63,283 nt of DNA from Rhizaria sp. SCN 62-66 (Eukaryota), in assembly GCA_001724265.1 (NCBI GenBank), contig MEDY01000003.1:124001-187283 (forward strand). Reading direction: 5' to 3'. Below the pieces are notes generated by a model that was not told where the DNA came from, ran no database searches, and worked only from the letters and a program-made list of their open reading frames with translations. Shown here piece after piece: positions 18,377-53,600 of the stretch; the first letter of the stretch is position 1, and the number at the start of each line of letters is the position of its first letter. Position numbers and translations under genes: made by a program.

Positions 18377-21300
18377 TTACTGCAAGGGCACTGCAGTCTC
18401 TTGGAACATGTGAACGGACTTAAGCGCAGACGCACACACAAACGCAGCCGCGCCGCCGTTCTGTGCAAGATTACTGTTTGCACGGTGGCTACTGAGGGGG
18501 CGGATGCACGTCCACTTCTCCCCACCCACACTGGCGCTACCCAGTCCGGCCGGGGTACTTAGACTGGGCGGGTCGGTCCAGTCGTACAGCACGTCGCCCG
18601 AGGCGGGGGAGAGACTCGCGATCTGGCCAGTGAAGGCCGCCGCAAGCACCGCAGTCCTGTCACTTGCACTCGCACTGTTGAGCCGAGAGCTAGAGTTCGC
18701 GTTGGCCTTGCTGCTGTAGTTGTTGTAGAGCGAGTGCGTGAGGGCAGAGAGCTTAAGCAGCTGCAGAGACCTGACGTCGACGCCGCCAAAGCTGTTGCGC
18801 CAGATCAGGCCCGTCGGAGTGTCGCCGACAACAGGGGCGCTGACAGCAGAACCCCCCTTCGATGCGGCGGTGTGCATGGGCGTGGTGCTGTAGCGCGGGC
18901 TGGTGTAAGTGCCCCAGCCCCTTAGATCCCAGCACTGCACGCTGCCATCGGCGTGTCCAGTATACAAGCACAGCGCAGCGCCGCCGTCACCGCCGCCGTT
19001 GGAGTCATTTGTGGTGAGAACGATCGACGAGAGCGGGTCGCACTGAGGAGTCGACCATACCGGCGACGTGCCTGCGCAGAAACGATCAAAGAATTGAACA
19101 TACAATCATATATGTAATAGTTCTAGTGAGATTAAGCAATACCACACAATACCGATTGATACACGTGACAATTAAGCTTGTAACTATTTTAAGTTTATAT
19201 TCGCAAATTAGTTCGAGATTGATAACGTACCGGCCCTGCAGTCCCAGAGTAGCCCGCGCCCGTCTGCACCGGCCGTGGCCACGACTGCTGGCGCCGCGCC
19301 GCAAACGGCGACGTCGAACACGGCCCCCGCGTGACCGCGGAAGACTGCGACGCCGGCGCGCTCGAAGGCGGTCAGCGAGGCCGGGAGCCCAGAGGCGGCG
19401 GCGGCGTCGACCGCGGCCGGGGAGGCGAAGCGCGCGCGCGAACAGTCCCACAGGCGCAGTTCGTTGTCGCCCGCGCCCGCCGTGTAGAGCAGGCCGGCCG
19501 AGCGCGGCTGGAAGGCCACGGCGCGCACCGTGGCTAAACAAGTCAATACGCAGCAAATACAAGAAAGCAAGTGGGAGGATGAGTGTTAAGCAAACATAAA
19601 CTAAAGGAAATATGGTGTTGCGAACATAATCAAATTGTTGCTCATGTTCAATGTTACGATGTTACGTACCGGTGTGTGCGTGCAAGTTAGCTTGCTCCGC
19701 GAAATACGGCTCCAGCTCCCGCAGCACGTCATCGCTCTCATCCTCCTCATTCTCAGCCACGTCACCATCAGCAGCATTCACACTCTTACCCTTGGCCTTG
19801 TTAGTCGGCGTCTTAGGTTTGCCGCCCTTCGTGCCAGCCTTGACCGCAGCAGTAGTGCCTGCGCTGGCGGAGTTGGTGGTGCTATTGACTGGAGCCCCGG
19901 CGCGGACCACGGTCACCTTGACCACGGGGTGATTCGACGAGCAGGCCATGAGCCCCAACGCCGACGCGTCGCTGTACAACGCGCGCGACGGGCCCGTGCC
20001 AGGCGCGCTCACAGTCCCACTCGCACTCGCAACATTGACGGCGCTGCTCGACTTGGAAGTCTTCGTGTTGTTGTTGGGGGTGGTGACGACGTCAGGGGGA
20101 ATGTAGCCCGCAGCGGCAAAAACGACGCTGTTGGCGTTGGCTCGCGCGCCCTTAGACGGGGTAGACTTGTTAGCCGGGGTACTTACACTGGTGGCACTTA
20201 CACCAGCGATGGGCCGTTGGAGCGCGAGTGAGTAGATTGAGCCGTGGTGGAAGTCAACGTACTTACGCACCACAGAGGCACTTACACCAGTACTTACATT
20301 AGAGCTACTCGAGGAAGGGCTGAGACGGCAGATACTCACTTCCTTGTTGTTATTGCCAACAAACAGCCATTGCTTCAGGTTGACGTCACTCTTGCCGCCC
20401 TTGCTCTTCGCAACTGCGCCCTTCGCCGTGTTGGGGCTGGAGCTGGGGTTGGGGTTGGCCTCTGCGTCCGAGTCTGAATCCGACTCGGGGAACAGAGCGA
20501 GCGCGCGCACGGGGGCCTTGAGACCGCTCATGAGCTTGCTGTGCTTGCTCACAGTCACCGTGTTCACCGTCGCTGTGCTCTAGCTCACGGCCACTGCGTC
20601 ATCGTTGCTCACGGTCGCTGTGTCAGTCGTGGCCCCAGCGGCTTTGTCATCTCTGCTCACAGTCAGCTTGCTCTCAGAACTCTTGAAGGCGCCGATATTA
20701 GCAAATGAAGTGTTGTTGTCGTTCAGAGGCGTCGCCAGCGTGTGCCTATGCGCGCTGCGTCTGCTGTCGTCGCCGTAATCATCGCCGCTGTCATCACCCT
20801 CGTCAGCCTCGCTCGTGTTGAGCGAACTCAGCGGCGGCCGCGACAGCGACGCAAAGCCGCCGCCTCTCGCAGCTCTCCCGTCTCTGCCGCCGCCGCCGGT
20901 CCCGCTCGCTGCTGCAGCGGTCGCGGCGGCGGCGGGGGATGTGACCGAGGCAGAGGCGGATGCAGCGGCAACCGCGGGGACGGTGACGGCTGCCTTCGTC
21001 GACACAAAAGTCGCAGAAGCAGGGTTTCTAGTGTTTGTGTTTGCAGCAGCGCTGTTGTTCGCGTTGTTCTGGCTAGGAATCGCGTCACAATCGCTTTCAC
21101 TGTCGCTCGCACCGGGCTGCTTCCTCCCGGTCTCGATCGCAGCAGACTGACCGTGAGCAGTGTCCGAGTGCCCGTGCGCCGCGTCCGAATGACCGTGGGC
21201 CGTGGAGATCGGTGTCCGGCGGCCCGCAATAACTGGGTCCAGTGCATGCGGGTAGCTGCTGAAGCTGCCGCTGACGCTCATGGCCGCACCCCCACTCGCA

Positions 21301-24300
21301 CTCGTCGTGCTACTCCCGGGGTCGCCGTTCGCGTTGCTGTTGTCACCGGTCGTCTTCGCATTGCTGTTGTTGGTGTTGTCTTTAGCAAAGCGGCTGCGAC
21401 GAGGCAGCGCGCCCGGAGCGGGACTCTGACCAGGAGCCGCCGTGGCAGTCGCACTTGCACCAACAGGCGCAGCGGTGGCAGCAGGAGCAGCAGATGCATT
21501 CGCACTTGCTGTTGCGCTAGAGCCGGTGCTGGGACTGCTGCTGCTCGCGCTACCACGAGTGCTGCTGCCGCTACCACTGTTGCTGTTGCTGCCGTTGAGC
21601 AAGGCGGCCGGGCCCAAGTCCAGTCCCAGCTCCTGTCCGATGTCGCGCTTGGACCGGGCCACGACCACGGCGCCCAGCGAGCCCGCGGGCGCCGGCGCCA
21701 GGGCCACGAGCGGCGACGGAAGCGCGCGCGCCGTGTCGCGGGCAGAAGGCTGGGCCGAAGGGGGGACTGTGTCGCGGTCACGTGCCGAGGGCTGGGCAGA
21801 GAGGGGGATGGAGCTGCTGCTCGAGCGGCGCTGCTGCTGCGGGCCCCGGTTGCTGCTGCTATTGGAACTACTGCTGCTGTTAGAGCTGCTGCTGGTGCTG
21901 TTGTTGTTGTTCTGTCGCTGAATAGCATCGTTGGCGGCGTGCCCGTTGGAGCCTGCGTCGTCGTCCTCGTCACGGTTGAGGCTGTGGCTCAGACTGGCGA
22001 TGTTCGCGACGCCGCTGTCGTCGCTGATGACGATCTTGTGCAGAGTGGCCGTGTGACGTTCGCTGTGACTCGCGCTGCCGTGGACAGTAAAGTTGTGCAG
22101 CGAGGCCCCGTGGTGGGCCGCAGCAGCGGCCCCCAAGGCACTGAGGCCGGCCGGCTCGATGGCACTTACACTGGGGTGCACGGGGGGCGTCACCGTCTCG
22201 GCGACGATCGTGCCCACATAAGTCCCCGTGCTCGGGCTAGGGCTGGGGCTGGAGAGGAGTAATCCTTTCATGGAGCTCCCGGTGCCAGCGGGAGGCGTGG
22301 CTGGACTCGGGCTGGAGAGGAGGGCCTTGAGGCCGGCGTCGTCGGCGCCAGCGGCCTCTGCCGCCATGACCAGGGCGCCGTTGGGGAGACTGTGGATGTG
22401 AGCGATGCTGCTTTGGCTGTGGTCAATGTCGTCGTTGTTGTCGCTGCCGGAGTGGTGATCGTTGGCACGGGGGAGATCAGTGGCAAGCAAAGACTTGAGG
22501 CCGCCGGCGCCCCACCGGCCAGTGTCGTTGAAGCCTGGCGCGGCTGCACTCGCACTCTCTGCCTCAGGGGCAGAGTCCAGAGTCGTATCGTCGTCGTCGC
22601 CGTTGTCGCCGTCATTGTTGTTAGGATTCGCGTTGTTGGTTCGAGAGTCGTCGTCAGAGATGTGGTCCTGGGGGGTGTAAGTGCCATTTGCAGTGTAACT
22701 ACCCTTCGCATCATCGTCGCCGTCGTCAATGTAGCCGTTGTTCTGCGTGTTGGCGCTGTTATAAGGCGTATGCGGCTAGCCCTTAGACTTGCAAGAAACG
22801 GATCGATTCACATCCTTCTCCGCCTTCACGTCTAAGGGGGTGTCAAAGCTGACAACTCCACGACTCCGCTGTTCGTTGCTGTTGTTGTTGTTACTGTTAG
22901 CTACATCGTCATTCGAGTCGTCCAAGTACCCCGACACGTTGTTCGCATCACCAGTGGCGTTAGAGTCAGCATTGTCATCATCATCAAAGTACTTGTTGTG
23001 CTCGCCAATGTAAGCGTTCGCATCAGAACCAGAGGCAGCAGCACCAGTAGCAGGAGCTGAGGCAATGCTGACGTCGCCGGCGTTCGAGACATCGACATCG
23101 CTGCAGTCTTTGTCATCATCGCGATCGTCATCGTCGTCATCGTTGCCGTAACCGTTGACAAAGGCATTGCCGTCGCCGTCCTAGTCCTCGTCGTCGTCAT
23201 ACTCGTCGTCATTGTTGTTGTTATTGTTGTTGTTGTTACTGTAGGAGCCGTTGACCTTGCGTCCCTTGCCCCTTAGACTCACCTCGAGCACGCCGCCACA
23301 ATACACGCCACTTAGATCCCCGCCGACACCCGCCGCGGAACCCTTAGATGGCTCCTGACCATCCTGTTCCTGGGAGTGCTGATGTGACTGAGTGTCCAGC
23401 TTCTGCTGCTGTTTCGCCAGCGCCCGGGCCCGCGCGGCGGCCACCTTGGCCTCCGCCACCGTCTCCGCCGACTGCAACACGTCAGCCAGCGCAATCAGCA
23501 CGCTCTCAGCGGCGCCTAGTCGGCCCCCAGGCACCGACCAGCCCGCGTAGGCGCCCGCGTACCCGCAGTCGCCGGCTAAGAGGGTACTTAGATCCGCGGG
23601 GTGAGTGCCCGGCGCGCGCACGGCGGCGGGCAGGCAAGCGCAGAGGGCCTCAAAGGCGGCGGGGGTCGGGGCGAGGCGCTTAAGGTCCTTGAGGCAGGCG
23701 ATGACGGCGGCGGTGAAGTCAGACAGCGACCAGAGCCCCGCCGCCGCGCTAGTCGCAGCACTCGAGCTCGACGCAGCAGAAGCAGAAGCGGAGGCTGGGG
23801 AAGCAAGAGAGAAGAGAGAGACGGGGACCGAGAAGGGCGGGGCAAAGCCGTGCGAGTCAACGAACGCGTTGTGGCGGGCCGAAATCGCTGTCACCGCCGC
23901 CGCGGCAGTCGCCTCTGCGTCAGGAGTGATGCTGGGGTTGGTGGCGGCTGCAGTGGCCTGGCTGATCGCAGCGAAGAGCAGCTCTGGCGTCAGATTGTTG
24001 TTGTTGTTGTCAGTGCTCTGTGACTGGCCGCTTAGCCCCCCCGAATGTAAGTACACCCTTACACAGTGCTCGGTGGCGACGTGCAGCATCTCGAGCAGCT
24101 GCTGCTCGCGCAAAGGGTAGAATACGCGCTCCCAGGCACGCGCCACGCCCTCGATGATCGGGAACCGCTTGCCCGCGTTGCTGTAGTTATGGTTATACTG
24201 GAAGCCCTGGCCATGTGTACTTCCCGGGTACCCGTGAGCGCCCCCACCAGTCGGACCCATGATACCGCTCATGTTGGCGCCGGCGCCGTCGCCGCTGGCG

Positions 24301-24926
24301 GTGGCATTGATGTGTCCGGCGGAAGTGGCGAGGAACGCCGTCTCGGAGGGATCGCGGAGCTCGCCAGACGCGGCCGTCAGCGCCACGCGCAAGCTGGCGT
24401 CGGCCTCGCGCCAGCGGCCGGAGAGAACGAGTGACCGCAGATGCGCCAGCTCGGGCCGCAGCACCGGCGCACCGGGCCCCGCCGCTGCACCAGCTGCGCC
24501 AGGAGTGGATTCGGTCTGGGCGCTCTCGTGGCCGCCCGAGGGCACAAGGAGGCTGGGCGGCAGCGCGGCGACGTCGACGACGCCAGACTCGCGCTCGAGC
24601 GCGGCGTGGGCCGCGAAGTGGCGGTGCGTGCGAAGCCACTTGAGCACGGCGCGAGTTTGCGTCGCGACAGAGGCGGACACCGCGGCACTGCCGCGCGCGC
24701 CAGGGCCGGAGCTGGGGGCCGAGCCAGAGCCGGAGCTAGAGTTCGAGCTGGAGCTGGAGCTGGAGCTGGAGCTGGAGGTCGCAGTGGCGGGGGCTGCGGC
24801 GGCGCGGGGGGGCGGGGCAGGGCCGTGGCTGTTGGGGCCGGGGCTCGTACCGCCCGATGTGTTGACACCGTCGGGAGTGTTGTTTACGGCGCCAGGCCCG
24901 CCGTAAACGGCAGGATAAGGCGGCAT
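18377..24926 (-). CDS. WDR47: WDR47/nemitin-like LisH-CTLH-WD40 protein (~2084 aa) with three in-frame TAG codons
   Basis: Exons 24926-19670, 19533-19231, 19071-18377. N-terminal LisH/CTLH-like (VLKWLRTHRHFAAHAALERESGV; ELAHLRSLVLSGRWREA); C-terminal WD40s (FHHGSIYSL, HTATVRAVAF, FRGHAGAV, TGHADGSVQCWD). Exon 1 stays in one frame through TAG at 23183-23181, 22778-22776 and 20582-20580. Ends TAA. Confidence 0.78.
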
Positions 24927-32765: not shown

Positions 32766-33297
32766 GCGCCTTAACAAGCGTTCACGCAGTCAAGCAACCA
32801 ACTAAGCAGTAACAAAGATACGCAAACGTGGGCCAGTAATGTGACTACAAGTGTTGCTGTTACTGTTGTTCTGTGTGTCTGTGGCTGAATGTGAACGCAT
32901 GTCACGTCTCATGGTAAACATGCGAATGCGATTGGCCAAAAGAATACACAACTCGATGGTTATTAACTGCATCAAACAAAGTAGCGTGATAAACTGACAT
33001 CTTCCTGCAAACGTATACAACGAGGTGTTTGTGTGAAAGCAAGTTATAATTGTATAGAAATCAAGAAACAGCATAGCATGTTGTCAACCGTAAACACCAC
33101 AAGTCGAAAAGACAGTTGAACACACGAGTGTATTTATCGCATCGTCGAAGTCCTTCATCAACGTTAAAAGCGTGACTTTTTGTGAATGTGAGATTCCTTA
33201 CGCCTTTTATTGGCCCCAATAGTGTTATCTTCGTGTTATAACCCGTGCATAGGTCTAAATACTAATTTAGATCAGTAGATCGTTCGTCGCGACTGAC

Positions 33298-35033
33298 TCA
33301 GATAGCGCTCTTCTTGCCCGGGACGCCGGAGCCGATCTTCTGGATGAGCCGCGGCTTCACCACGATATACCCCTCCTCGACCTCCTCGAGACGGCCCTTG
33401 AGCTTGCGGCCAACAACGCCGCCGATCTTGACCTCGGGCTGCGCAGACAGACGGTGCTTGCGCACCTCCTTGATACGGTCGGAGTCGGTCTAAACGAAGC
33501 AAAACAAGCAAAAACAAGCAATAGTCAGTTTGTTCGAGACAAAATAGTGAAAGTGAGGTTAAATATCATCACACGGTTCATAAACGATGAAATTTAGAAA
33601 TAATAGCGTTCGTGCTTTAGTTAAACATAGTGTAGTCAATTTGCTGCATGATGCCCATCATATCGATCTTAGTTAGGAGTTCTGTGATGTTTACGTACGC
33701 GCTTGACCTCGGCCTCGGTGAGGCCGCGCTCCTTGGCGACCTCGGCAGCCAGACTGGCGACTGTGGCGCCTGCGGCAGGCTTCTTGGCGGCCTTGGCCAG
33801 CGCGGCGTCGACGAGAGCAACGCGGCGCGAGAGCGCCTCGGCGGACGCCACGGCGGCCGCCTTGGCGGCGGCCTTCTTGGCGTCGCTCTTGGCCTTGGCG
33901 GCGATGGCGGCGGCGATGGCGGCGCTCGCAGCCTCGTCCTCGTCGTCCTCGTCGGCGTCGTCCTCGCCGTTGTTGTTGCCGTCTTCGTCGTCGTCGCCGG
34001 AGGAGGCGTTGTCGTCGATGTCACCGGCCGCAACGTCGTCGTCGTCGTCATCCTCGTTATCGTCGTCGTCGTCGTCAGCGGCGTCGTTCCTGGCAGATTC
34101 GTCGAAGTTGGTGAAGAGTTGCTCGAACTCCTCCTCCTCGAGCTTGCCGACATCGATCATCGACAGGGCGCGGGTCACGGCCTCCTCCTTGAGCTCCGTA
34201 GACAGCAGGTTCGCGCCCTTGCGAGCCGCAACAACCGCGATGTCAACGGGCGCCGCAGCGCTGCGGGAACGCTTGACAACGGGGCCCGCGGACTCGTCCT
34301 GGTCCTCGGCGTCCTCAGCGTCGTCGTCGCTGTCGTCGTCGTCGTCGTCGTCGGTGTCGGCGGCGCCGAGGGTCTGGAGCTTGGTCATGAGCTTGATACG
34401 CTTCTCGAGCTGGGTCGCCGTGTCCTGCATGATGTTCACCTTGATGTCGCGCGCCATGGCGACGTAATTGTCGCCGTGCTTCTTGATCAGGTGCTGCAGA
34501 CGGTACCTGCGAGTGTGATACCACAATACAGAAGCGAGAAGCAAAAGAGGATACAAATCAGTGAATATAATAAGTTGATAACGCCACACTTGACATCATG
34601 GTGTTTGATAGTGACAAATAACCAATATATCGATCATGTTGATAAAAAAAGATCATACACGTGAGATATACATTGTTATATACAGAAGTTGTGATTTGAC
34701 GTACTGCTCCTGGACCGACATAGACTTGACCTGGTAGGAGGCGCGCTTGGGGGCAGCCTGGGCCTTCTCAAGTCGGGCCGTCATGCTGCCGCTGCCGCCA
34801 ATCTCGGTTGCGCCCGCGGGGCCGCGCTTGCGGACGGTGGGCAGCGCCTCGTTGGCATCGAAGACGATACCGAGGTTGCGGTAGTTCTGGCGCTGCGACA
34901 GACGCTCGTCCCAGCCCTCGATGTTCGTGCGGTGGGCAAGCGCAGCATTGTGCGCGTAGTGCTGCGTGCGCTTGTGCTTGTGGCGCTGTGACTTGGTATG
35001 GGCAAGGCCAGAACGCTTACGGTTAGCCCTCAT
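33298..35033 (-). CDS. NOP16: Nucleolar protein 16 (ribosome biogenesis) with long acidic C-terminal extension
   Basis: Exons 35033-34705, 34506-33699, 33489-33298. Motifs WDERLSQRQNYRNLGI and LIKKHGDNYVAMARDIKVNIMQDTATQLEKRI. Ends TGA. Confidence 0.85.
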
Positions 35034-35252
35034 TTCTGCGACACGAAGCGGAGGTAAGAAAGAAAGTCCAAGGGTGTGTTAAAGCAGACACAAAATAGTA
35101 CTATTGTCACAACTAGGTAGGCTTTTAAAAGAATGGACATATTATCCCGGTCGTATATTATCCGGAAATCGCGGCTATATTATCACTGACGGATTTGCTA
35201 TCAAATTACACATCAAATGCGAACGGCCTACATCCTAGGTCCTGAGGGTCTT

Positions 35253-35303
35253 CTTCGAGTCGCTTGTCTCAGTCACCGACGACCGACCGTTGAGCTCACA
35301 GTC
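35253..35303 (-). promoter_or_regulatory. Three-block upstream motif, copy 2
   Basis: Reverse complement reads GACTGTGAGC-TCAA-CGGTCGGTCG...CGACTCGAAG; ~220 bp upstream of the NOP16 ATG in the same relative orientation as copy 1. Confidence 0.45.
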
Positions 35304-35813
35304 ACCTGGTAGGCTGGTTTTAAGGGGCAGGAGACACTTACCAAGAGCATCTGCTGACTGGGCTATTTCGCAGTCGGGACCGAGCACAGGCGTAAACAAG
35401 CTCAGTCTGCTCTCAGGACAACGTCAGCATGGGTGGTATTTTGATATTAAATTAACCTGAGACGTGGGACGTGCGAAACGCATTAGTTGTCGTCGTGACG
35501 ACGCGTCCTAATTGCGAAATCTGCGTGTCAAATCGGCGCCGTCAAAGGCTATGTCGTGGAGAAGGCGACCGCAAAGCCCCTCTTGCCTCGCCTTAAACTA
35601 CTTTTCAACAGCATCCCCATGTGTTGATATTTATTTAAAAATGTATTATTTGGGTTTTCTCGTCTACATCATAACAAATTATTCTCAACGATGCTTTGTA
35701 TGTTGCAGATATCTTGTTCCCAATCGCTCGCTCGCAATGGTTCCACTCATCGACTCACCATCTCATTCTGCTCTATTGTGCCTTTGCCCTCCTTATTGAA
35801 GTGGTGAATAACC

Positions 35814-38800
35814 ATGTCCTCGTACGCGGAACGTGCAGGAGCTCCCGCCGCCTCGGCCAAGCCCAACAACAACTCGACTAAGCCCGCCGCTGCTTCTGCC
35901 GCTGCCGCTGCTGCCAAGCCCGCCGCTCCCAAGAGCGCCGCCGCTGCCGTTGCCGCTGCCGCTGCTCCTGCTTCTAAGTCTTCTTCTGCTGCTGTTTCTT
36001 CCACCGTTCCGCCTACTAAGTCCGCCTCTAACAAGTCGGGTTCGTCCAAGTCCAACAAGGGCTCTGACAACTTCGACCTGCTTGGCGATTCACCCATCGA
36101 GCCCAAGACCCGCCACCAGGTACGACTCCTGATATCTTCTTCAAATTTCCTCTACTGTGCTTGAGTTACACTACCGTTTTAGATCCTGTGTAGTCAGCAT
36201 TGCTGGTATGTAACTGAACTATAACGATTCTTTTCATTCGCTCACGCCTCATTTTCATGATACTATATTCCCCTCCAACAGGGTGTGGGCATCGTCAAGA
36301 ACGTCCTCTCCGCGACGTCGATCATCGTTTCCGGTGCCGGCAAGGAGAAGCGTCTCGTGCTCTCGGGCATCACCGCCCCCCGCCTGGGCTTCGGCCCCCA
36401 GAGCGTGGACGAGCCCTTCGCCTTCCAGGCCAAGGAGTTCACCCGCGCCCTCCTCCTGGGCAAGAAGGTCTCCTTCGTCCTCGTTAACGGCGCCGCCGAG
36501 AACGAGGGCTCGTCGGAGCAGGCCGAGGTGACGCTCGACGGTGTCAACGTCGCCCACGCCGTCGTCTCCGCTGGCTGGGCCAAGACCTCGATCCCGCCCT
36601 ACCTCACCCGCGGCAACGCCACCACGGCCGCCGACAACGCCGTCCCCGACGCCGTCACCAAGAAGGACAAGAAGGCCGGCGCCGCCGTCGCTGCCCCCGC
36701 GCCCGCGGCTGCCCCGTCGTTCGACGCGTCGCAGCTGCCCGCGGACCGCGCTGCGATCTACAAGCTCCAGCTCGCGGCCGAGAAGAACAAGGTGGGCATG
36801 TTCAAGCCCAACCCCGTGGCCACCGTGCGCAAGATCAACCGTGCGCCCGTGCACCTGTCGTGGCTCAAGGCGCACAAGGGCAAGCCCGTGCACGCGATCG
36901 TGGACCGCGTCATGGACGGCTCGATGCTTCGCCTCGAGATCCCTGACCCCGCCAACCCGGCCTCGCTGCAGCACACGATGCTCACGGTCAACCTCGCCGG
37001 CGCTCGCTGCGCACGTATGCCCATGAGCAGCGACAAGAACGCCGTCGCCCCCGAGGGCGCGGCCGAGGCCGTGGCGTTCGTCGAGCAGCGTCTGCTAAAC
37101 CGCGACGTGGAGCTCGTCCTGCTCGGCCTCGACAAGGCCGGTCAGGCCACCAACTCCCAGGGCGCGCTCTACGGCTCCATCAACCACCCCAAGGGCAACA
37201 TCGCGGTCCGCCTGCTCGAGACCAACCTCGCCAAGTACGTCCCCTGGACTGCCGCGCTGCTGCCCGAGGACGAGCGCGCCCAGCTCCAGGCCGCTGCCAA
37301 CGTCACCGCGTCCTCCACCCCGTCCGGCGGCAAGCCCTTCGAGGCGACTGTCGTGCAGATCGTCTCCGGCGACGTCCTCGTCATCAAGACGGCCGACGGC
37401 AAGGAGCAGCGCGTGTGCCTCGCGTCGGTGTCTGCGCCTCGCTCGTCCCGCGACAAGTCCGAGCCGTTCGCGTTCGAGGCCAAGGAGTTCCTCCGCAAGT
37501 CGCTCATCATGAAGCCCGTGACGGTGATCCCTGAGTACACCCGCGAGGGCAAGGCTGCGTCGCCCGAGGAGAAGGGCGAGATGCGCCAGTACGTCACCGT
37601 CTTCAAGGGCAAGTACAACGTCGCCACCGAGCTCGTCGCCGCCGGCCTCGCCGACGTCACCCCGTACTCCAAGGAGGCTGACCGCCCCGCGAGCTACGTC
37701 GAGCTGTGCGCCGCCGAGGCCGCGGCCATCGCCGGCGAGAAGGGCAAGCACTCGAAGAAGGCCCACCCCGCGCAGGTCCATGACTTTACCCGCGTTAACG
37801 AGCGCCGCCGTGGTGGTGCCGCCGCCGCCGCCGCTGACGAGAGCAAGTCGAGCAAGAACGATGCCGCGCAGACCAACAAGGCTAACGCGGACCGCCTCAA
37901 GATCGTGCTGGACAAGCTCATTGCGCAGCAGAACGTGCACGGCGTTGTCGAGGCCGTGTTCGCGCCCAACCTGCTTAAGGTCTTCGTGCCCATGCTCCAT
38001 GCCTACATCCCCGTCACCTTCGCCGCCATCCAGGGCCCCCGCTCCGCGCGCCGCGCTGCCGACGAGGCCGAGGAGGCTGAGGAGGGCGCCAAGGAGAAGT
38101 CCGCCGCCAAGTACAAGGGCTACTCCGACTCCGCCATGGCTATTCTGAAGCAGTACATGCAGCAGGACATCACGCTCGAGGTCTCTGCGCTGTCCCGCCA
38201 GGACTCGTTCCTCGCCAACGTGCTCGTCACCGCCCCCGGCGCCGCGGCCGGCACCCCCAAGGACAACCTCGCCGTGACCCTCGTCAAGCAGGGCCTGGCG
38301 GCGCTGATCCCGCCCGTTGCCGAGCGCAACGCGTACAAGAAGCAGCTCCAGCAGGCCGAGTCCGAGGCCAAGAAGCGCCACCTCAACATCTGGGTCGACT
38401 ACGACGAGGAGAAGGAGCGCGCCGAGTATGAGAAGGCCCGCACCGAGGCTGCCCAGGCCGTGCTTGGCGCTGGCACCTTCGTCAAGGACGACGTCCAGTA
38501 CCTCCACTGCGTCGTCACCGACGTTGTCGACCCCGTGCACTTCTACATCAACTCGAGCGACGACAAGAACGTCGAGCTTGTCAAGGAGAAGATGGCTGCC
38601 TTCTCCGGCAGCGAGGCCGCGCCCGCCGAGTGGAAGCCCATCCGCAACGACATCGTCGCCGCGCTCTTCGACGAGGACAACTCATGGTACCGCGCCCGCA
38701 TCGACAACGTCAACACCAAGTCGGAGCTCTACTCGATCCAGTTCATCGACTTCGGCAACGTCACCGCTGTGCCCCTCTCGGCCCTGCGCCCCCTGCCCAA

Positions 38801-39200
38801 GGACCTCGCCGCCATCAAGCCCCTGGCGCGCCCCTGCAAGCTCTCGTGCCTCAAGCCCCCGATCGCGGGCTCTGAGTACTTCGAGGCCGCTGCCAACGCC
38901 TTCGCCGACATCACTGCGGGCGTCAAGTTCGCCGCCCGCATCGACGGCGCCGAGCCTGCCCCCAGCCAGCTGCTGTATCTCACCCTGTACCCGGCCGAGG
39001 TCGTCGCCGAGGGCAAGATGAAGGATGCTGCGTCGGCCAATACCGAGCTCATCCGCGCCGGCTGGCTCCGCGTCAACCCGCGCCCCCCGCGCCGTCTCGA
39101 CGCTCTGATCCCTGAGCTCGAGCGCGTCGAGGCCGAGGCCCGCGCCAGCCACGTCAACATCTGGGAGTACGGCTACTACGCCTCCGACATGGACGATTAA
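35814..39200 (+). CDS. SND1: Tudor staphylococcal nuclease (Tudor-SN/p100)
   Basis: Exons 35814-36119 and 36282-39200. Repeated SNase domains (DEPFAFQAKEF, EPFAFEAKEFLRK), Tudor cage ALFDEDNSWYRARI..FIDFGN, terminal EAEARASHVNIWEYG. Ends TAA. Confidence 0.95.
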
Positions 39201-39510
39201 GCAGTTGATCAGCTCCGTGATACGAGACGGACGACGACTGGAAACCTTTAACGTAACTGTGCGGTGTTAAGAATAATATAATTTCAAGAAAGGTGATGAT
39301 CATGGACGCACCTTTCAATCATTCATAATACAATAGTTTTTTAATACGTCCTTTTCAGTAAATGATAATGATTGTTGTATTCATCGTGTTATATTCGTAT
39401 TATATTCGTAAAGAAATTCAAATATAGTTGTTGTTTTTTCACTGGTCTTAAAAGGGTTAGTATAACATCCACCTGCAACATCTCCATCTAAGCCTTGCTT
39501 ACGGCGTCGC

Positions 39511-42500
39511 TTAGTAGTAATAATCAATGTAGTTATCGCTGTTATTGTTGTTATTATTGGAATTAAGTGCCTTCCCGCGCGCCTTAAGCGTCTCAATCAC
39601 TCCCGCAGCGCGCATGTTCGCCAGCGAGGGCCGCAGCGCAGACGTGATAAACGCGGTGGTGCGCTGGACGTCGTCGTCAAACAACACGGTGTGGCGGTAC
39701 GCGTTTTCGTAGCTGTCCACGCGGTTGCTGCGCGAGCAATGGCGCTCGCGGCCGCTTGAGTGGCGTTCACGGTCACTAGAACGCCTCTCGCGTTCGCTGT
39801 CATTGCGGTGGCGTCCGCTCGAGTGGTGATCACTGCGGCTCTTGCTACACTTCCTGCCAACGTTGATGTTATCGCTGTGGCGAGAGTCGCTGTTCTCTTT
39901 ATCACTGCTGCTGTTAATGACGCCACTGGCGCCACTGCGACTGTCAACGCCAGAGCTAGTCTTGCCCTTGTCGCGGTGGCTCATCTTGTCATCACTGTCA
40001 TCGTCGTCGCTTGCACGGCCAGGACTGTGGCCACTAGCACTGTCACCATTGCTTTGGTTGTGGTCGTGAGCACGACTGCGACGGTGACTGTGATGGCGGC
40101 TGGTGCGACGCGGCTTAACTTCCTGTGACGGCAGAGTGAAATCGCCCAGCGTCGAGAACGCACTCGAGAACGGGCCCCGAGAAAGTGTTGCAGTGCTCAG
40201 CGTGGGCAGCGGCACGGGGCGCGGCCGAGGACGCGGGTAAGGTTGAGTGGATTGCGACTGGGGCTGCAGGCGAGATGGCGCATAGCGGTCGATGAAAGTG
40301 AGGGGATCAATGACAGCAGGCGTTGCAATCGTGTTGGCAGCAGCATCAACGGTGGTATCATCTGGTGGATTATGATTAGCCGCGGTAGAAACATCGCCGC
40401 TATTGTTTGAAGCAGCCGCAATCCTGTTTGTGCTTGCGTCACGCGCTTCTTTGTTCGCATCATCGGTCGATCTGCTAATGTTGGCATTCGCAACTGGGGG
40501 TAGTGCCGTGATGACAGGGGCAAACGTGGCCAGATGCGCAAGGCTCGGCAACTTTGACAGCTTCTGGCTCGCTGCAATCGGACCGAAACTGTTGGTGGGG
40601 GCGCTGTTGGTCGTCAGTGTTGCGACTGCAGCAGCGAGACGACTGAGCATGTTGTCACTGGCAAAGTCCTTATCATCCTCAAGGACAGCAGCCTTGTCCA
40701 CAGCTGCGGCAGAAGCGTCGGCATCAGATAAAGGTGTCTCGACACTCTTAATCGCAGTTAAAGTGCTAGAATCAAGTGAGATCGCTGCGGTGGCATCATC
40801 AACACACACAGGAGTGATGGCGGTGGCGGCAGCAGCAGCAGTCGGCACAGTTGAGGTCGCAAGCGGAAACTGCACGGCCTCACGCTGTTGCTCAGAGGCG
40901 AGTACGTCCTTCGTAGGCGCTAAGATGTCGATCAGTGCGATCGTCCCCTCACCGAGTCCTTCCTTGGAGTAGACTTCAGATGTCGCGTCAAATCGATAAA
41001 GCGCATCGCTCTGGCTCACGTCCTCACCGTCGGTTTCGCTGTCCGTGGCGGCGTTAGCAGCTGCAACAGCAGCGGCTAACGCGGCGGCCGCTGCAGCCAC
41101 GGCAGCGCTCTTGTCTTTCATACGCTTGCTGATCTTAGCGCTGGTGCTGCCAAGGTTAGCCTGCGAGAGACCAGCGGCAGCCAGAAGCTCAGACGCAGTT
41201 GCAAGCTCAGGCAGCACCGGCAACAGCAACGCTGGCTGCCAATGATGCTGCTGATGGTCTTGCTGCTTCGTGGTTCTAGAAGCAGCGAGCACATGGCTTG
41301 CGGCTGTGGTTGCAGTGCCCATGATGAAGCCAGTGGGGCCGTTGGTGTTTGTGGCAGTCACAGTGGGCTCACGGCTAACAGTAGGCTCGGGCAGTGACTC
41401 TGAGAAGACGTAGCTGTCACGGAAACTGTCACTTTCGCTGTTGCGCGCGCCGGTCACGACTGCAGCCGGGCTCGGGGCAGGAGCAGTAACGCTGATATGG
41501 CCGTTGTTCGGGCTCGTGTGCATTGAGTCACCGTTTGCGTGGGCGTTGCTATTGGCACAAGTAGTAACTTTAGGCGCAACAGTGACACGGTCTTCGTCAT
41601 CTTCAGCACCGTTTGCATCAACATTAACAGCAGTCTTCGCAGCCACAGCGCCCACACTCGCGTGCGCATTGAGACTAGCATTACCAGCGATCGCGCTTGC
41701 AGCGCCCGGCGCAGGGCAACTGTCGGCGGACTGGCTGTGCGCAATGTGGTTCAGCGTGATGTGCTGGTTGTGGACCGCAGCGGCGCCGGAATAACCGTGG
41801 GCAGCGTGGCTGTGGGCAGCGGACCCCGCAGGACTGTGCGAGCGCGACGAGCTGTGACTGTGGGACGCCGACTGACTGTGAGCAGCAACGGCGACGGCAG
41901 CGGCGGCCGCGTTGCTCGAGCCAGCGTTGGAGCTGGCGCTGGCGAGCAGGCTCGGGCTGAACTGACTGTGGGCGAGCGAGCGACCCGCAGAGACGGGACT
42001 GTTGGCCACACTCACGTGCTGGCCAGGGGCCAAGTAACAGTGAGCCGAGTGACCGTGAGCCAAGCCGGCGACGCCACTGTCATGCGCGGCGGTCACAATC
42101 CCAGCGGCAGCGGCAGCGGCGGCCGTGGCGGCAGCAGCGGCCGTGAAGTGACCGTGGGGACCGTGCTTCGGACTCGCGGCGGGGCTGAATCGGCCGCCCA
42201 GACCGCCGCCGACGCCGCCGCCAGTGAAGCTGCTTGTGCTGCTGATACAGCTCATGCCACCTATGACACCAGCGCCACTGCTACTAGCGCTGGCGCTGGC
42301 GCTGGCGCTGGTGAAGGAGCTGTTGTTGCTGCCCGCGTTGCTGCTGGCGGCGCTGGCGCGGGCGCGCGACGGCGACGACGGCAGCGCGGCGGGCAGCGCT
42401 GGAACAGGAATCGCGCGCGGCGACGACGGCAGCGGCCGCAGCGGCGACAGCGGCCGCAGCAGCGGCGACTGCGAGCCGAGCGGCGTCTGCGCGCGCAGCG

Positions 42501-45120
42501 GTGGCTGCGAGGGATGCGGCGACTGTGCGCCGCGGAGGGGAGACTGTGCGCCGCGGTGCGGCGACTGCGGCGGCGAGGACGTCGCGAGAGGGAGCGCGAG
42601 CGGCTGCGGCGGCGGCAGCGACAGCGACAGAGGCGGCGGCTGCGAATACAAGTTTTGGTCACCCGGCGGGACGTTGGAGAGATCGTTCGATGGGGCGCTG
42701 ATGAACACGCGCAGCGGAGACGGCGGGCGCAGCGACTGCGCGGCGGCGACAGCGCCGGCGTTGTTGGCGCTGGGCGTGCTCGGAACAACGCTCAAGCTGC
42801 TCGCGGATGCACTGGTAACGTCCGCGTTTGTGATAACGCCTACGATTGCAGAGGTGTTGGTCTGAGGCGGCAGCGGGGACGGAAGCGGGGGAGCAGGCAG
42901 GTCCAGATCAGGGAGATGGGCACTGTGGGCCTGCTGAAACAACAGCTGTTGGGTCTGCTGTTGAGACTGATCCTGTTGTTGCTGCGGAAGTTGCTGCTGT
43001 GGAGGCTGCATGACAGGCTAACAAAGCTAAATCTGCTGCTGTTGCTGCTGCACCTACCCCTGTGGCAACGGCAGCGGCACAGGCAGGGCGCGCGGCGGCT
43101 GCCACGCCTGCGGCTGCCACGCCTGCGGCTGCAGCGGCAGCGGCAAAGCGGGGGCGAGGACCGGAGTCCGTGCTGGCGTTTGGTGAGCCGCAGGCTGCGG
43201 TACGGCGCGCGACTATGGCTGTTGCAGATTTTGCGACTGCTGTTCAACAGCAACGCTCGCACTGACCGAGTTCGCATTCCCCGCGACCGGTGCCTCAGTA
43301 GCGGTGACTTGACTGCCGGGAACCACAAACGCGGGCACTGGCGGCAGCGGCAGCGGCAGCACCACGTGTTCTGTACTCGTGGGGGGAGTGAAGTGCAGTG
43401 CGTTCCCGCTGGCGTTGGTGCCGTACGCGGCCAGCAGCCGGATGAGCGCGCCGCGGGCCGCGGTGGCAGCGTCCGCCGCCGCGGTTGACGCGGGGGCCGT
43501 GGCGGCGGCGCCGTAGCCAGCGGCGGAGTCGGTGACCGCGGAGTCGGCGGCGGTCAGGCCGCTGTAGCCGTAGGTGTAGACGGAGGGGTTGTGTGTGGAG
43601 GCGGCCGTCGCGACGGGCGCAGTGACAGGGACGGGGGCCAGAGCAGGAGCAGACGAGCTGGAAACAGAAGCAGCGGTGTTCGATGCGGCGTTGGTGTTTG
43701 TGTAAGCGCTCTGGCCCGCGCTGTGCGGGCCCTGGTCCCGAGTGTGAGCGCCTGCAGGCGAGTTCGTGAAGTCAGAGATGAGCCCGTCGATGCGACTCTT
43801 GAGCTGGTCGAAGGTCGTGCACTCGGGCGCGATGACAGTCACCTGGGGCACCGCAACCGCGGGCACAGTCACGGTGACCGTGGGCGCAGTGACCGTGGGC
43901 GCAGTGACCGTGGGCGCAGTGACCGTGGGCGCAGTGACCGTCGTGGGCGCAGTCGGCTGGGGAACTGCGGGCATCGCAATCGAGGGCACTGAGACTGAAT
44001 GCGTGGGAATATATGACTGACTGCTACTGACATTGACTGTCTGAGGCAGGTTTGCAGCAGCAGCAGCAGCAGCAGCACCATCGTGAGAAACATGGGCGCC
44101 GTCGCGAGAAATGTGGCCGTTCATCGTCGCTTTGGCCTTAGCAGCGGCGATGGCAGCGGCAACAGCCGTCTCGGCCTCGCACAACGCAGCGTTGACGCCG
44201 CCCTTGTCGCCGCAGCTGCTGCTGCCGCTCCTGCTAACCCCAGTGCCCGCGCTCTGAAGCTGCGTCTGCAACTGCTGCAGCTGCTGTAGCTGCAGCTGCA
44301 ACTGCTCTTGCTGTTGCTGCTGTTGTGCATGTTTCTGCTGCTGCAGCTGCTGTTGCTGCAGTTGTTGCTGTTGCAGCTGCCTCTGGCGCTGGAATCTTGC
44401 CGCATCGGCCTCGGCTTCCGCCTCTGCGACTGCAGCCTCGGCCTCGGCCGCTTCCTGTTGCACGCGCTGCTGCTCCGAAGCGAAGCCGCGCGCGCGCTCC
44501 ATAGTAGCGAAGCGGGGGAGCGGGACGCGGCCGTCAGACGCAGGGCCGCCGACGCTGGGAGTGACAGCGCCCGAGCCCCGCGCGCGGGCACGCACTGAGG
44601 TGAGCGCAGGCGGCGCAGCGCTAGCGGTGCCGTTACCGTTGTTGCTGTTGTTGCTGTTGTGGGGGCGGGTGAGGGTGGGGATGGACGGAGGAAACAGCGA
44701 GCGAGTCACGACCACGGGCACTCCACTAGCAGCAGTAACGCCAGTGCTTGCACTGCTGGTAGCGTTGTTGCTGCCCGTGATGGCGCTACCGTTGCTGCTG
44801 TTGTTGCGGTTGCGCTCGAGCGCCTGCTGGATCCGGCTGTCCAGCGCTGCGGCCGCCGCGGGGTCAAGCGGCGATGGCGACGCCAAGGCGCGCAGCGGGC
44901 GAGACACCGCGGGGCGCGTGCTCGCGGCGGCAGTGGAGGCGGCGGAAGCGGCGGTGGCGCGAGCGCCGCGCGAGGGCGACGGGGACGGCGAGGCGCGGCG
45001 GTAGGGAGATGAAGAGCCGGAGCCAAACGCGGGCCTGGTCGAAGTAGATGTTCCTCGTGCGCTGACGCGTGGGGAGTAAGAGGACGCAGAGACGTAGACA
45101 GAAGAAGATGGAGTGGCCAT
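39511..45120 (-). CDS. Hypothetical ~1869-aa low-complexity protein with four in-frame TAG codons
   Basis: ORFs 43213-45120 and 39511-43011 are in one frame, joined by 68 codons containing TAG at 43215-43213, 43056-43054, 43029-43027, 43020-43018 and no TAA/TGA. ATG directly follows a pyrimidine tract + CAG (probable 5'UTR intron 45197-45121). Ends TAA. No domain recognised. Confidence 0.7.
43874..43954. repeat. 15-bp coding tandem repeat (GTGACCGTGGGCGCA)x4 plus a degenerate copy
   Basis: Read directly; encodes (TVTAP)n on the minus strand. Confidence 0.9.
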
Positions 45121-45659
45121 CTGGAACCGGAAAAAAAAAGTTTATCACGGCTGGGAATCAGAAAGTAAGGAAAGGGCGAGCGTGATCCAACGGCTACCTG
45201 TAGTGTAACGGTAATGAGTATAGTGGAGTATATAGTGAGCCAATAGAAATATTATAAAAGGATATACTTAAATAAATGTCATAAAATATACGTATGTTTG
45301 TGAATGTTGGATTAACGGTATATTCACGATGTGGCTACTAAAAACGCGAGTTTGGCAGGGTCGAGCAAGCAAGGAAGAAGCAAGGAGCGACCGGTGGCGG
45401 TTCAGAAAAACCGGATGTAGCAGCAGACCCGTGACAATAAAAAACACTGCCTATGATTCTCAACAAGATGCTATAGAATATCAATGCATTATTTATATAG
45501 AAAATTGTCTGAAATATTCCTATCAGTCATTATTATTCTGATTTTCGAAAGAAAATGCCGGATGTTCGCACACCTCCAAGCGATCTGACGGAACCCGAGT
45601 CCCATAAGCTTCCCCTTACGCGCTCACTCCACTTTTACTTTTTACGTTCAGTTACTCGT

Positions 45660-46550
45660 ATGTTTAGTGACGAACACGACGACTGCAGGGGCCCTCGCTC
45701 GTATCCTCTCAGCGCCGTCCTCGCCGGCGCCGGGTGCGGGGCGCGGGTCGGCTTCGGCCTCAGACTGCTGGGCCACTGACGCGTTCCAGGCCCCGGGGCG
45801 CGACGTGCGTCCCAGGCCCCGGGACTCAACGCTGCGCCGCTGGAGGAGCTCGACGCAGACTTCAAAGAGGCGTTCGTGTGGCTCATCGCCCACCACGCCG
45901 CGCTCGCCGACCTGGCCGCGGGCGACGAAGTGCGGCGTGTGGGGCAAGTCTGCACGCTGGCCGCCGAGTTCAACGCCACAACCGCCGCACTAACGCTGAC
46001 ATTCCCCGCCGGCTGCGACTACGCGAAGCAGCGGGTGCCGATCGGCGAGATAAACGCCAAGCTCGGTGCGATTGAGGCCGAGTCCAAGTGCGCCAAGCAG
46101 GAGACGCTCAGGTTCGACGCGATCAGGAGCGAGACCGACAGGATGTTGGAGAAGCTCCAGAAGCAACACCCAACGTTAAACGTGGTCTCCAGCAGCACGG
46201 TCAGCAACAGCATCAGCGACAGCACCGCAACAGCGTCAGTGACAGTGTCAGCGACGGCGTCAAGTACCGAGTTGAAGCCAGAGTCAGTGAGGCGCAAAGG
46301 CAATGTTTCTGGGAAGACAGCGATTGAAGCAAACAGCACAAATAATGGTCATCTTGTGCCCCTGCAGCAGACGTCAGGCATTGCTGATACAATTTGGGAA
46401 AGTGGGAACAAAGAAGTGGGTGGCCGCACCGCCCATTCACACTGCTGCTTCTCGGTTTGCAACGTGGAGCACACTGTATCTCGGTGGTATTTCCGTCACT
46501 GTGCAAATAAAATCAATACAGATTTCCCCAATACATTTACTGCTGAATAA
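45660..46550 (+). pseudogene. Coding-like fragment or unresolved gene model with an in-frame TGA
   Basis: GC-rich coding-like frame from ATG 45660 is interrupted by TGA 45777-45779, then open to TAA 46550; no family recognised. Confidence 0.3.
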
Positions 46551-50598: not shown

Positions 50599-50618
50599 TT
50601 ACGCCGACGGGCCCGGGG

Positions 50619-50650
<32 letters not shown>

Positions 50651-53600
50651 ATCTGTGCCTGCTGCTGAGCCTGCGCTTGTTGTTGCTGCTGCTGCTGTTG
50701 CTGTTGCTGCGAGCTTGCCGACGAGTACACGATCTGCATGTTGGGCATCGGCGCCTTGACGCTGACGCCGTAGAAGAACGCGTTGCCGGTGCCCGTGAGC
50801 GGCTGCGCAATGACCTGGTAGCCGATGTTCTCCGTGTACACCTGCAGGTAGCCGTAGCCGGCCGGCGGCGCGGGCAGCTTCGACGACGGCGAGAGCGGTG
50901 GCGGCGCGGGGGGCGACGCGGCCGCGGGCGCGGGCGCAGCGGCCGCGGCGGGCGCGGCGGCGGTGGCGCTGGCGGGCGCGGAGCCAGTGGTGTTGTAGCT
51001 GCCGCTGCTGGTGCTGGAGTTGTTCGGGTAGCTCGCGCTCGAGTCCAGCTGTTGCTGCTGCTGCATTTGCGCGAGCTGCTGCGCCTGCGCTTGTGCCTGC
51101 TGCTGCTGCAGCTGAGCCTGAGCCTGGGCCTGGGCTTGCGCCTGCGCCTGCGCCTGCGCCTGAGCAGCAGCCTGGGCCTGCGCCTGAGCCTGCGCCTGCG
51201 CGGCCGCAGCGGCCTGAGCCTGGGCTTGGGCCTGGGCAGCGGCGGCCTGCGCTTGCGCCTGGGCCTGAGCCTGCGCCTGCGCTTGGGCCTGTGCTTGCGC
51301 CTGAGCGGCAGCAGCAGCTTGGGCCTGCGCCTGCGCCTGCGCTTGGGCCTGCGCCTGCGCCTGCGCCGCGGCGGCAGCAGCAGTCGCCGCGGCGGCCGCG
51401 GCGGCCGCACGCTTGTTGATGCTGTCCTGCGCGCGGCGGTGCAGGTGCGCGATCTGCGGCGGCATGTACATCTGCTGCACGTGCTCGGGCGGCAGCCCCA
51501 GCTGCACGCGGTGCGCGTGCGACACGGCAGCCGGCTGCGACGGGTCCAGGTGCGAGAGAATCGCGCGCACGCTGTCGTCCGTCGTCGGCAGTGGGGGCGG
51601 CGGCGCGCCGCTCGCCGTCGCCGCCGCGGCCTGTGCGTGCGCCTGCTGCATCACAGTCGCGAACGGCATCACGCTCGCACGGCCCAACTCGCGCGCGCGC
51701 GCGATATTCTGCGCCGAGCGGTCGACGAGCCCCAGCAGCTGCAGCAGCTGTGGCAGCGGCGCCGAGTCGGGCGGCAGTACAGCCATGCCCGCGCCCGCGG
51801 CCGCGAAGCCCGGGGCGCGTTGCGCCGCGGGGTACGGCACGGTCGGCGGCGCGGGCGGCGCGGGCGGCGAGGGCGTCTGGCCGCCCGACGGGCTCGCGCT
51901 GGGCCCGGTCGCGGAGCCCGAGGCGGGCAGCGGCAGCACCACGTCGGTCTCCTTGGCGTTGGCGCCACTGGCGCCCTCGGACGCGGTCTCGCCCTCAGTG
52001 CGCGAGCGCTTGACGCGGGGGCCGCCCTCCTCGCCCTCCGCGGTCGCGGCGGCGTCGCCGCTGGACGTGGCCGCGGCGGCGTCAGAACTGGAGCTGGCGC
52101 TGGCGCTGGCGCTCGTGGAAAGGGTCCCCTCGGCGGCGGTCGCACTGCTGCTGCTGCTGGAACTGCTGTCGGCATCGGCGCCGCCGAGCTCACGGCGCTT
52201 GCGGTCGCTCGCGGTCGTGGCGTAGCGCTTGCCGCGGCGGTCGTCGAAGCCCTCACCGTCGCCGTCGGCAGCGCCGCCCTTAACGGCCGCGCCGCGCCGG
52301 TCGCCGTTGCTCGCGGCGGCCGCAGCGGCCGCGGCGGACGCGGCCGCGGCCGCGGCGTCGGCGGCGGTGAGCGCGGGCAGGAAGGGGTAGCTGGACGCGA
52401 GACACAGCGGCAGCGAGGGGTAGAAGAGCATCGCCACCTGCTGGTTCGGCGGAGGCGGCACAAGCCCGAGGGGCGCGGGTGGCACTGGCGCACCCGTGAG
52501 CGATGAATTAATCACGGCGTTGGCCATGTCCGTCTTCATCTGCTCGCGCTGCGTGAGCGTGACGTAGCGCAGCAGACACTGGCGCGCCGTCTTGAGCCGG
52601 CCCTTGGCCACCGGCTGCACGGCCAGCGCCTCGGACACCAGCGGGTAGTTGGAGCCAAAGCGCAGCAGCAGTTGCAGCAGCAGCGTGTCTTCGTCCGACC
52701 GCCAGATCGAGTCCGTCTGGAACATGGTGTCGGGCGACATCGCCGGCAGCCCCTCTGGCGCGGCACTGATGCCCGTGGCCTCGAACCCGGGCGTGGGGCG
52801 GATCGTGTTGATCAGCAGTGGCGGATGCGCGGCCTCGCGCGGGATGCCGCGCGACCACTCGTGCGGGTACGGCGCCAGGAACGACTGCGTCAGCGGCTCG
52901 GCGGGCGTCCACAGGCCGCGCACCGAGGGCACGGGGGCCGAGTCGCGCCACGCGGGCGGCAGCGCGGCCAGCGTCGACGCCGGCAGCAGCGCCTGCGCGA
53001 GCGAAGACGACGATGCGAGCACGGAGCGCACCGCCGCGGGCGTCAGCGCGTGGCCCGCGATCTGCGTCGACACATTCGCCAGCGCGGCCGCGGTGCTCGT
53101 GTCGCAGTCGAGAACGTCGCCGTCGCCGTCGCAGTCGCCGTCGTTGCCGTCGGGGTTGGCGCCGCGCTTGTCGCCGCTGCTGTCGGTGTCGTCGTCGTCG
53201 TCGTCAGCGCCAGCAGGACTCGAGCCGGAGCCATCGTCCTCGGGGTTATTACTGTTGCTGCCCTTGCCCTTGTCGCTCAGGAGCTCGCCGTTCTTAGCGA
53301 TGGCGTCCGCCGCGGCCTCAAACGCGCTGGCGCCCTCGGCGGCCTCGGCGTTGGCGTAGAGCTGCTCGAGGGACGCCAGATCCATGCCCGTGGGCGGCGT
53401 CTCGGGCACCACGGGGAGACGCCAGCGCGGGGCCGTGGGCGGCTGGAACAGCAGAGACTGATAGAGCTGCACGCGCATCACCGTCAGCACACGCACGCGC
53501 GACGCGCTCGCCGCGGCGTGCGCACTCGCCGCCGACGCGGAGCACGAGCTCTGTGCGGCAGGGGCGGTGACGGCAGCGAGGACGCGGGTGTCCCGCTTGG

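Follow-up and report, generated by a model that had tools for sequence, protein, structure and literature searches.

Nuclear codes with UAG set apart from UAA

Nuclear genetic codes that split UAG from UAA are on record from just a few lineages, namely Iotanema, the rhizarian exLh and phyllopharyngean ciliates (PMC5304391; PMC11687900). UAG encodes glutamine, with UAA and UGA kept as stops, in Iotanema spirale (Fornicata) (PMC5304391) and in the ciliates Hartmannula sinica and Trochilia petrani (PMC11687900). It encodes leucine in exLh, a member of the Sainouroidea (PMC5304391), and in three uncultivated phyllopharyngean ciliates from TARA metagenomes (PMC11687900). For exLh, 384 in-frame UAGs were reported in 71 genes, terminated by UAA (56) or UGA (15) and never by UAG, and the codon is rarer in highly expressed genes and rarest in ribosomal protein genes (PMC5304391). 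Here, we analyzed a stretch of 63,283 nucleotides (nt) assigned to Rhizaria sp. SCN 62-66 (contig MEDY01000003.1, positions 124,001 to 187,283), in the following called the window. Two long genes on its minus strand, gene A (45120..39511) and gene B (24926..18377), are interrupted by in-frame TAGs, and no gene end in the window is a TAG. This combination suggests that TAG is read as an amino acid.

The gene ends (n = 16) were placed by domain completeness, the end of the open reading frame (ORF) and the drop in G+C content (GC), which is 0.32-0.53 in the 60 nt past each terminator. Nine of the terminators are TAA, seven are TGA and none is TAG, a small sample that represents the window only. 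Genes A and B together contain seven in-frame TAGs and no in-frame TAA or TGA within 3,621 codons. A scan for TAG read-through with segments of at least 120 codons gave no positively scoring segment with a TAG near its 3' end. A comparison of read-through over the whole window by stop type was discarded as uninformative, since read-through of TGA opens antisense frames of GC-rich genes.

This pattern resembles the codes with UAG as glutamine in that the in-frame stop is solely UAG, UAA is the preferred terminator (9/16 here) and the TAGs of gene A stand in a Q-rich context. Unlike in Iotanema, Hartmannula and Trochilia, for which UAG is reported to be widespread and to occur at conserved glutamine columns, TAG is present in two of 16 genes and in no conserved column of the window. 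The window further differs from these organisms by its high GC, its introns of 124-185 nt and the lack of a close named relative. High GC, such an intron size and strict GTACG donor sites would seem ill-suited to ciliates.

With exLh, the window shares the origin from an uncultured protist, in-frame stops that are UAG only, and terminators that include UAA and UGA and exclude UAG. In contrast to exLh, TAG is far sparser in the window (7 in 16 genes versus 384 in 71), and no TAG of the window lies in a conserved column, whereas the leucine assignment in exLh was based on such columns. The avoidance of UAG described for exLh looks like a milder form of the uneven use seen here. Sainouroids are described as free-living or coprophilic (PMC5304391), a lifestyle that would presumably suit wastewater.

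A third comparison concerns the ambiguous codes and read-through systems of Condylostoma, Parduczia, karyorelicts and Blastocrithidia. As in these systems, a stop codon would be translated within genes, and the base following it differs between internal TAGs and true terminators: a purine follows 14 of the 16 terminators and three of the seven in-frame TAGs, three of which are followed by C (Fisher p 0.045). Unlike in the ambiguous codes, in which the translated codon serves as terminator at gene ends as well, not one of the 16 genes is terminated by TAG. CARYYA is a known read-through context, and it follows none of the seven in-frame TAGs. In the literature searched, supplements aside, no UAG change was described for a wastewater eukaryote or outside the lineages named above. 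UAG-only codes as such are already known, and the case of the window, if our reading holds, is probably an independent one.

Coding signal across the TAGs of gene B

Gene B is better evidence for read-through of TAG than the gene A locus. It consists of a TAG-interrupted first exon, two introns whose splice sites follow the consensus, and a C-terminal WD40 region, and ends with TAA:

19670..24926, minus strand: exon 1, 1752 codons without TAA or TGA
19534..19669, minus strand: intron 1, 136 nt, GC 0.36, donor GTACGT, end TTTAG
19231..19533, minus strand: exon 2, WD40 repeats (Pfam WD40, E 4.1e-07)
19072..19230, minus strand: intron 2, 159 nt, GC 0.32, donor GTACGT, end GCGCAG
18377..19071, minus strand: last exon, ending with TAA at 18379-18377

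WD40 proteins in PDB match exon 2 with E values down to 4.3e-15. The impression by eye that its N-terminus is LisH/CTLH-like was dropped, as no match came from Pfam at E ≤ 1 or from searching PDB with the N-terminal ORF.

The three in-frame TAGs of gene B are dispersed over exon 1 (23183-23181, 22778-22776 and 20582-20580). For the analysis of their flanks, the codon model was trained on 11 other genes without genes A and B; a flank scan with both genes inside the training set is circular and unspecific, and the leave-out model was used instead. All four segments of exon 1 delimited by the TAGs scored best in one and the same frame (0.33-0.60). Windows of 30 codons on either side of every TAG scored 0.25-1.29, which is at least the 95th percentile among 1491 windows taken off frame. 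After the TAGs, the frame stays open for 134, 731 and 305 codons, with chance probabilities of 0.039 to 1.8e-17 based on the off-frame stop rates of gene B. The 134-codon segment between the first and the second TAG has the highest coding score (0.60) and contains no Met codon, and therefore it is no separate cistron. No intron of the local type could take out any of the three TAGs.

Gene calling with the standard code splits both genes, and the predicted-protein collection lists ORF fragments of gene B as separate proteins. The 581-aa ORF that stops at TAG 23183 is on record from four contigs, and the ORF following TAG 20582 from seven contigs plus three additional records; the recorded variants of the last ORF of gene B differ solely in the called start. 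Both ORFs of gene A are absent from this collection under their exact ends.

The same data bear on the possibility that genes A and B are decaying pseudogenes in an organism with the standard code, their TAGs having arisen by nonsense changes from CAG, GAG, AAG, TCG, TTG or TAC. In these genes, 65-69% of the single-step nonsense changes lead to TAG, and seven TAGs out of seven have a probability of 0.05-0.07. Because nonsense changes in the two genes mostly give TAG, the TAG-only pattern is weak evidence when taken alone, which counts against translation of UAG. Decay would also fit the codon bias of five long ORF segments in the two genes (0.18-0.38 versus a known-gene mean of 0.50; the two shorter segments of gene B score higher, with 0.60 and 0.47), the low complexity of both genes and the failure to find a homologue of gene A. 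We nevertheless consider this explanation quite improbable. Seven nonsense changes would imply roughly at least 100 substitutions plus several indels, but the 3,621 codons contain neither a frameshift nor any other stop. Gene B retains two consensus-spliced introns and intact WD40 exons, its coding signal is not diminished past any of its TAGs, and identical ORF ends return in assemblies from 2015 to 2025. Moreover, decay leaves the lack of TAG among the 16 terminators unexplained.

The four TAGs of gene A

On the minus strand, one frame runs from ATG 45120 to TAA 39513-39511 over 1869 codons. It contains four TAGs (43215-43213, 43056-43054, 43029-43027 and 43020-43018) and no TAA or TGA before the final TAA. 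With the standard code, gene A corresponds to a 635-codon ORF and a 1166-codon ORF starting at ATG 43011, which share one frame and are separated by a linker:

43216..45120, minus strand: upstream ORF, 635 codons from ATG 45120, low-complexity sequence rich in A, S, T and Q, no Pfam family
43012..43215, minus strand: linker, 68 codons, P/Q-rich, four in-frame TAGs
43018..43033, minus strand: acceptor-like site, T-rich, pyrimidine stretch leading to TTAG, two of the four TAGs inside
39511..43011, minus strand: downstream ORF, 1166 codons, ending with TAA at 39513-39511

These data agree with a sequence-only reading made earlier, which had reported four TAGs (43215, 43056, 43029 and 43020) without TAA or TGA, had quoted the linker peptide exactly and had described the two ORFs as joined without frameshift. 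The upstream ORF has a codon score of 0.27 (five other frames -0.23 to -0.77) and the downstream ORF one of 0.18 (other frames -0.27 to -0.68). Past the TAA of gene A, GC drops to 0.48 in the first 60 nt and to 0.36 over the intergenic region 39201-39510.

The locus is repetitive. A perfect 15-nt tandem array at 43874-43941 (minus strand, 4.5 copies) encodes a TAPTV repeat, and another one within the linker at 43095-43132 (minus strand, 2.5 copies) encodes QAWQP. All eight tandem arrays in the region 42800-44000 have a period that is a multiple of three; three of them lie inside the linker, with periods of 3, 15 and 6. Such a region could be chimeric or mis-assembled, or binned wrongly, and many foreign reads and contigs match it at 90% likeness. 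Against an artefact of this kind, which we regard as extremely improbable, a contig of 2129 nt from the independent DNA run X3 of another study is identical to positions 41775-43903 of the window, with no differing letter and no gap. Because of this identity, the TAGs of gene A are real letters and no error of a single assembly. In addition, the runs X1-X3 (DNA, 2015-2017) contain 97-99% of the sampled gene A words.

Four runs were mapped on positions 26000-45999, a 20-kb stretch that does not include gene B: X7 (polyA RNA), X4 (kind unknown), X10 (a cDNA library flagged as 'probably DNA') and X3. A contig of X7 maps to 43961-44247 in the upstream ORF with 0 differences. Among the matches listed, which are dominated by low-complexity cross-matches, no RNA contig crosses the linker. 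None of the 15 joints listed of 405 removes the linker; many joints with 20-nt sides derive from CAG/GCC repeats of other organisms. No weight is given here to the missing cover of the linker.

The linker had also been described as GC-rich, coding-like and not intron-like. Its GC over 204 nt is 0.70, compared to 0.32-0.47 in the eight introns delimited in the window (124-185 nt), which bears out the first point. The linker does not look like the introns of this organism. It has a YAG acceptor with pyrimidines, but neither an in-phase donor of the local consensus nor an AT-rich length of 124-185 nt. The in-phase donor candidates 43266 and 43203 score -0.0 and 0.1, whereas 12 true donors score 2.8-12.4 (leave-one-out), and the one good donor, 43057 (score 4.6), would yield an out-of-phase intron of 40 nt. 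Since GT[AC][CT]G is absent from the 400 nt upstream of ATG 43011, the acceptor at this start codon would be without partner. What qualifies the earlier statement is the acceptor-like site itself: located at 43018, 6 nt upstream of ATG 43011, it reaches a score of 9.9 with the 3' splice-site matrix, by which eight true sites score -1.8 to 15.6.

If the linker were spliced out as an atypical GC-rich in-phase intron ('exitron'), the TAGs of gene A would never reach the ribosome. A candidate of this type, 43266..43018, comprises 249 nt (83 codons) from GTCAGT to TTGTTAG, has phase 0 and takes out all four TAGs, and the score of its acceptor is inside the range of the true sites. Its donor, however, ranks only at the 81.5th percentile of 509 exonic GTs and has an A at position 4, which occurs in none of the 12 true donors, and the alternative donor 43203 has a score of 0.1. 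Both its length and its GC of 0.70 are outside the range of the local introns, and the only good donor leads to the 40-nt intron that is out of phase. The joints listed argue weakly in the same direction, and splicing of this kind could not remove the TAGs of gene B. Taken together, an exitron appears very unlikely.

Acceptor-like sites next to start codons are not confined to gene A. A pyrimidine tract with YAG lies 0-9 nt upstream of several start codons (7775, 24938, 25455, 31434 and 45121-45128), and acceptor-like sites were found 5-9 nt upstream of four starts other than ATG 43011, those of topoisomerase III (TopoIII), g301, gene B and Hsp33. For the gene AnkAAA, a cis donor 141 nt upstream accounts for the acceptor as part of a 5' intron, and the region upstream of the N-terminal methyltransferase (NTMT) gene has a GTACGT donor at -195. 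No partner donor was found for the start-adjacent acceptors of the remaining genes. Spliced-leader trans-splicing was rejected as the source of the acceptor at ATG 43011, as AnkAAA has a cis donor and no sign of a spliced leader was seen.

With respect to coding, the linker scored best in the gene A frame among its six frames, but this score, -0.22, is within the bottom 1-8% of true in-frame windows, so that only the first of these results supports its coding-like character. The linker contains four TAG trinucleotides, each of them in the gene A frame, and its two other sense frames have none. These in-frame TAGs, the array periods in multiples of three and the G content of 0.31 ahead of ATG 43011 speak for coding. 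In a first-order Markov simulation of the linker, four or more in-frame TAGs were rare (P 0.0009) and the lack of in-frame TAA and TGA was unremarkable (P 0.54). A shared frame of the two ORFs has by itself a chance of 1/3, and a shared frame without in-frame TAA or TGA one of about 1/3 x 0.54. All TAGs of gene A crowd into 68 of its 1869 codons, past the first ORF and ahead of the next ATG, as they would in a dead spacer. The poor codon score, this clustering and the acceptor-like site weigh against translation of the linker, and on the gene A locus by itself an origin by chance carries a weight that is not negligible.

These properties could mean that gene A is in fact a pair of neighboring genes, or a single gene that an old nonsense mutation has split. 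TAG 43215 would then be a true terminator and ATG 43011 the start of the second gene, and the 204-nt spacer would be former coding sequence that gained three TAGs later. The acceptor-like site would be placed as in TopoIII, g301, gene B and Hsp33, and the shared open frame would be the coincidence calculated above. We judge such a split to be unlikely. TAG 43215 would be the lone TAG terminator among 17 gene ends. The spacer has a GC of 0.70, compared to 0.36-0.57 in the five intergenic stretches measured (310-1449 nt), and it is G-rich, unlike real 5' regions, which are G-poor: the G content is 0.31 in the 70 nt preceding ATG 43011 and 0.04-0.26 preceding eight other starts. The missing GT[AC][CT]G motif in the 400 nt upstream also argues against a split, and gene B, with its Met-free middle segment, would not be explained by it.

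Probable decoding of UAG and the genome context

Based on these results, we favor the view that UAG is translated in this organism, by reassignment or by suppression, and that gene A is hence one gene, a conclusion which we hold to be moderately probable. UAG would be decoded as an amino acid either as a reassigned codon, through a tRNA whose anticodon is CUA, or by very efficient suppression, and UAA and UGA would stay terminators. Gene A (45120..39511, minus strand) would then be a single gene for a disordered protein of 1869 residues, with its four TAGs as rare sense codons within an unconstrained P/Q-rich spacer, and gene B would be read through its three TAGs up to the WD40 C-terminus. 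Insertion of an amino acid at UAG by the ribosomes is what this reading predicts, and a tRNA(CUA), like any alteration of eRF1, is presumed with it.

The standard code needs two long genes with multiple nonsense codons and no frameshift, intact introns and WD40 exons, and 16 terminators free of TAG. A UAG sense codon explains all these observations, at the price of assuming that UAG is rare and that disordered proteins with weak bias alone tolerate it. Several general observations weigh against it. TAG is carried by two of the 16 genes, which is not widespread use, and the remaining 14 genes, about 12,000 codons by an estimate from the sum of ORF lengths, have no in-frame TAG, the long SNF2 ORF included. 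Conserved domains and alignable columns contain no TAG, and neither does any Pfam-matched region of the window. Gene A has no Pfam family, and a word-index search found none of its homologues among 7,999 scored candidates; a full HMMER search with residues 470-1669 gave 0 matches at E ≤ 0.001 among 1.84 billion representatives, and no orthologue bridging the linker was found in these searches. With its poor codon score, clustered TAGs and acceptor-like site, the gene A locus as initially reported is the weakest part of the evidence. The earlier proposal that UAG is sense and UAA a stop is thus supported by the three TAGs of gene B, by the lack of TAG at 16 gene ends and by a linker unlike introns, and is weakened by the finding that use of TAG is not general.

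The assignment to glutamine in the sequence-only reading was not supported: no TAG is in a conserved column, the contexts of the gene B TAGs are D/E-rich, K/G and S/T and none is Q-rich, and UAG means leucine in two of the known codes. If UAG is sense, glutamine is still the residue that we tentatively favor, at somewhat less than an even chance, because three of the gene A TAGs are located in or beside Q runs and a single transition converts CAG to TAG. Leucine is rather unlikely, even though the TAG stretch of gene A reads naturally with leucine inserted as well; other residues make up the remainder.

The window represents eukaryotic nuclear DNA. It contains genes for fibrillarin, an Arf GTPase, NTMT, TopoIII, URO-D, ALG10, ATG27, Nop16, Tudor-SN and an SNF2 ATPase, and it combines high GC in exons with AT-rich spacers and introns. 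Among 12 donor sites, ten are GTACG and the remaining two GTATG and GTCCG, an unusually strict 5' splice-site consensus (donors e.g. at 2911, 19669, 19230, 36120, 49568 and 62872). The strict GTACG donors and the intron style may assist in placing the organism. One intron served as reference:

36120..36281, plus strand: Tudor-SN intron, 162 nt, GC 0.40, donor GTACGA, end AACAG

It is the sole intron backed by a spliced cDNA contig (run X10, on 35804-36116 and 36279-36529). No close named relative was found in the protein collections searched. The best matches to named proteins have 47% identity for NTMT and 29% for Tudor-SN and are spread across fungi, oomycetes, diatoms, plants and insects; for environmental proteins that are unnamed, the values go up to 81% and 60%, respectively. 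A metagenome scan with Tudor-SN revealed a sole related DNA locus (JAEAMF010011914.1, 3195 nt) with 44% identity. Its Tudor-SN ORF is intronless and GC-rich with an AT-rich upstream region, contains no in-frame stop and is free of TAG; the genome style is the same as that of the window. Profile scans of genome contigs and viral contigs with a four-sequence alignment gave no match. Searches for tRNA genes and Rfam families gave no match in the 63,283 nt of the window, and eRF1 is not among its genes. DNA of the organism recurs in metagenome runs from bioreactors, wastewater and activated sludge, so that it has been seen again in wastewater reactors across a decade.

Further observations concern single genes. 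The ORF with SNF2 and Helicase_C matches and a weak YL1 match (50599-62778, minus strand, about 4,023-4,059 codons, with an upstream exon from 62873) represents a chromatin remodeller of very large size that has long tails of low complexity and is free of TAG. The eukaryotic gene at 25467-27641 (plus strand) encodes an Hsp33 redox-chaperone domain (E 1.7e-18), and its N-terminus looks by eye like a targeting peptide; Hsp33 has a patchy distribution among eukaryotes. Long spurious ORFs occur antisense to GC-rich genes, e.g., one of 649 codons at 41539-43488 (plus strand). Choice of the wrong strand by standard gene callers may be a reason why the exact ORFs of gene A are unrecorded.

Sparse UAGs in disordered regions together with gene ends free of TAG are the expected look of early codon capture, stages of which are seldom observed. 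It is conceivable, at odds slightly below even, that UAG became a sense codon independently in a GC-rich, intron-bearing, non-ciliate-like wastewater eukaryote in which UAA and UGA are still stops, and that this change is at an early or low-usage stage, with UAG tolerated in just a few long proteins, where these are disordered and weakly constrained. If true, it would add an independent case to the few nuclear codes in which UAG and UAA differ in meaning and provide a data point on how UAG code changes begin.

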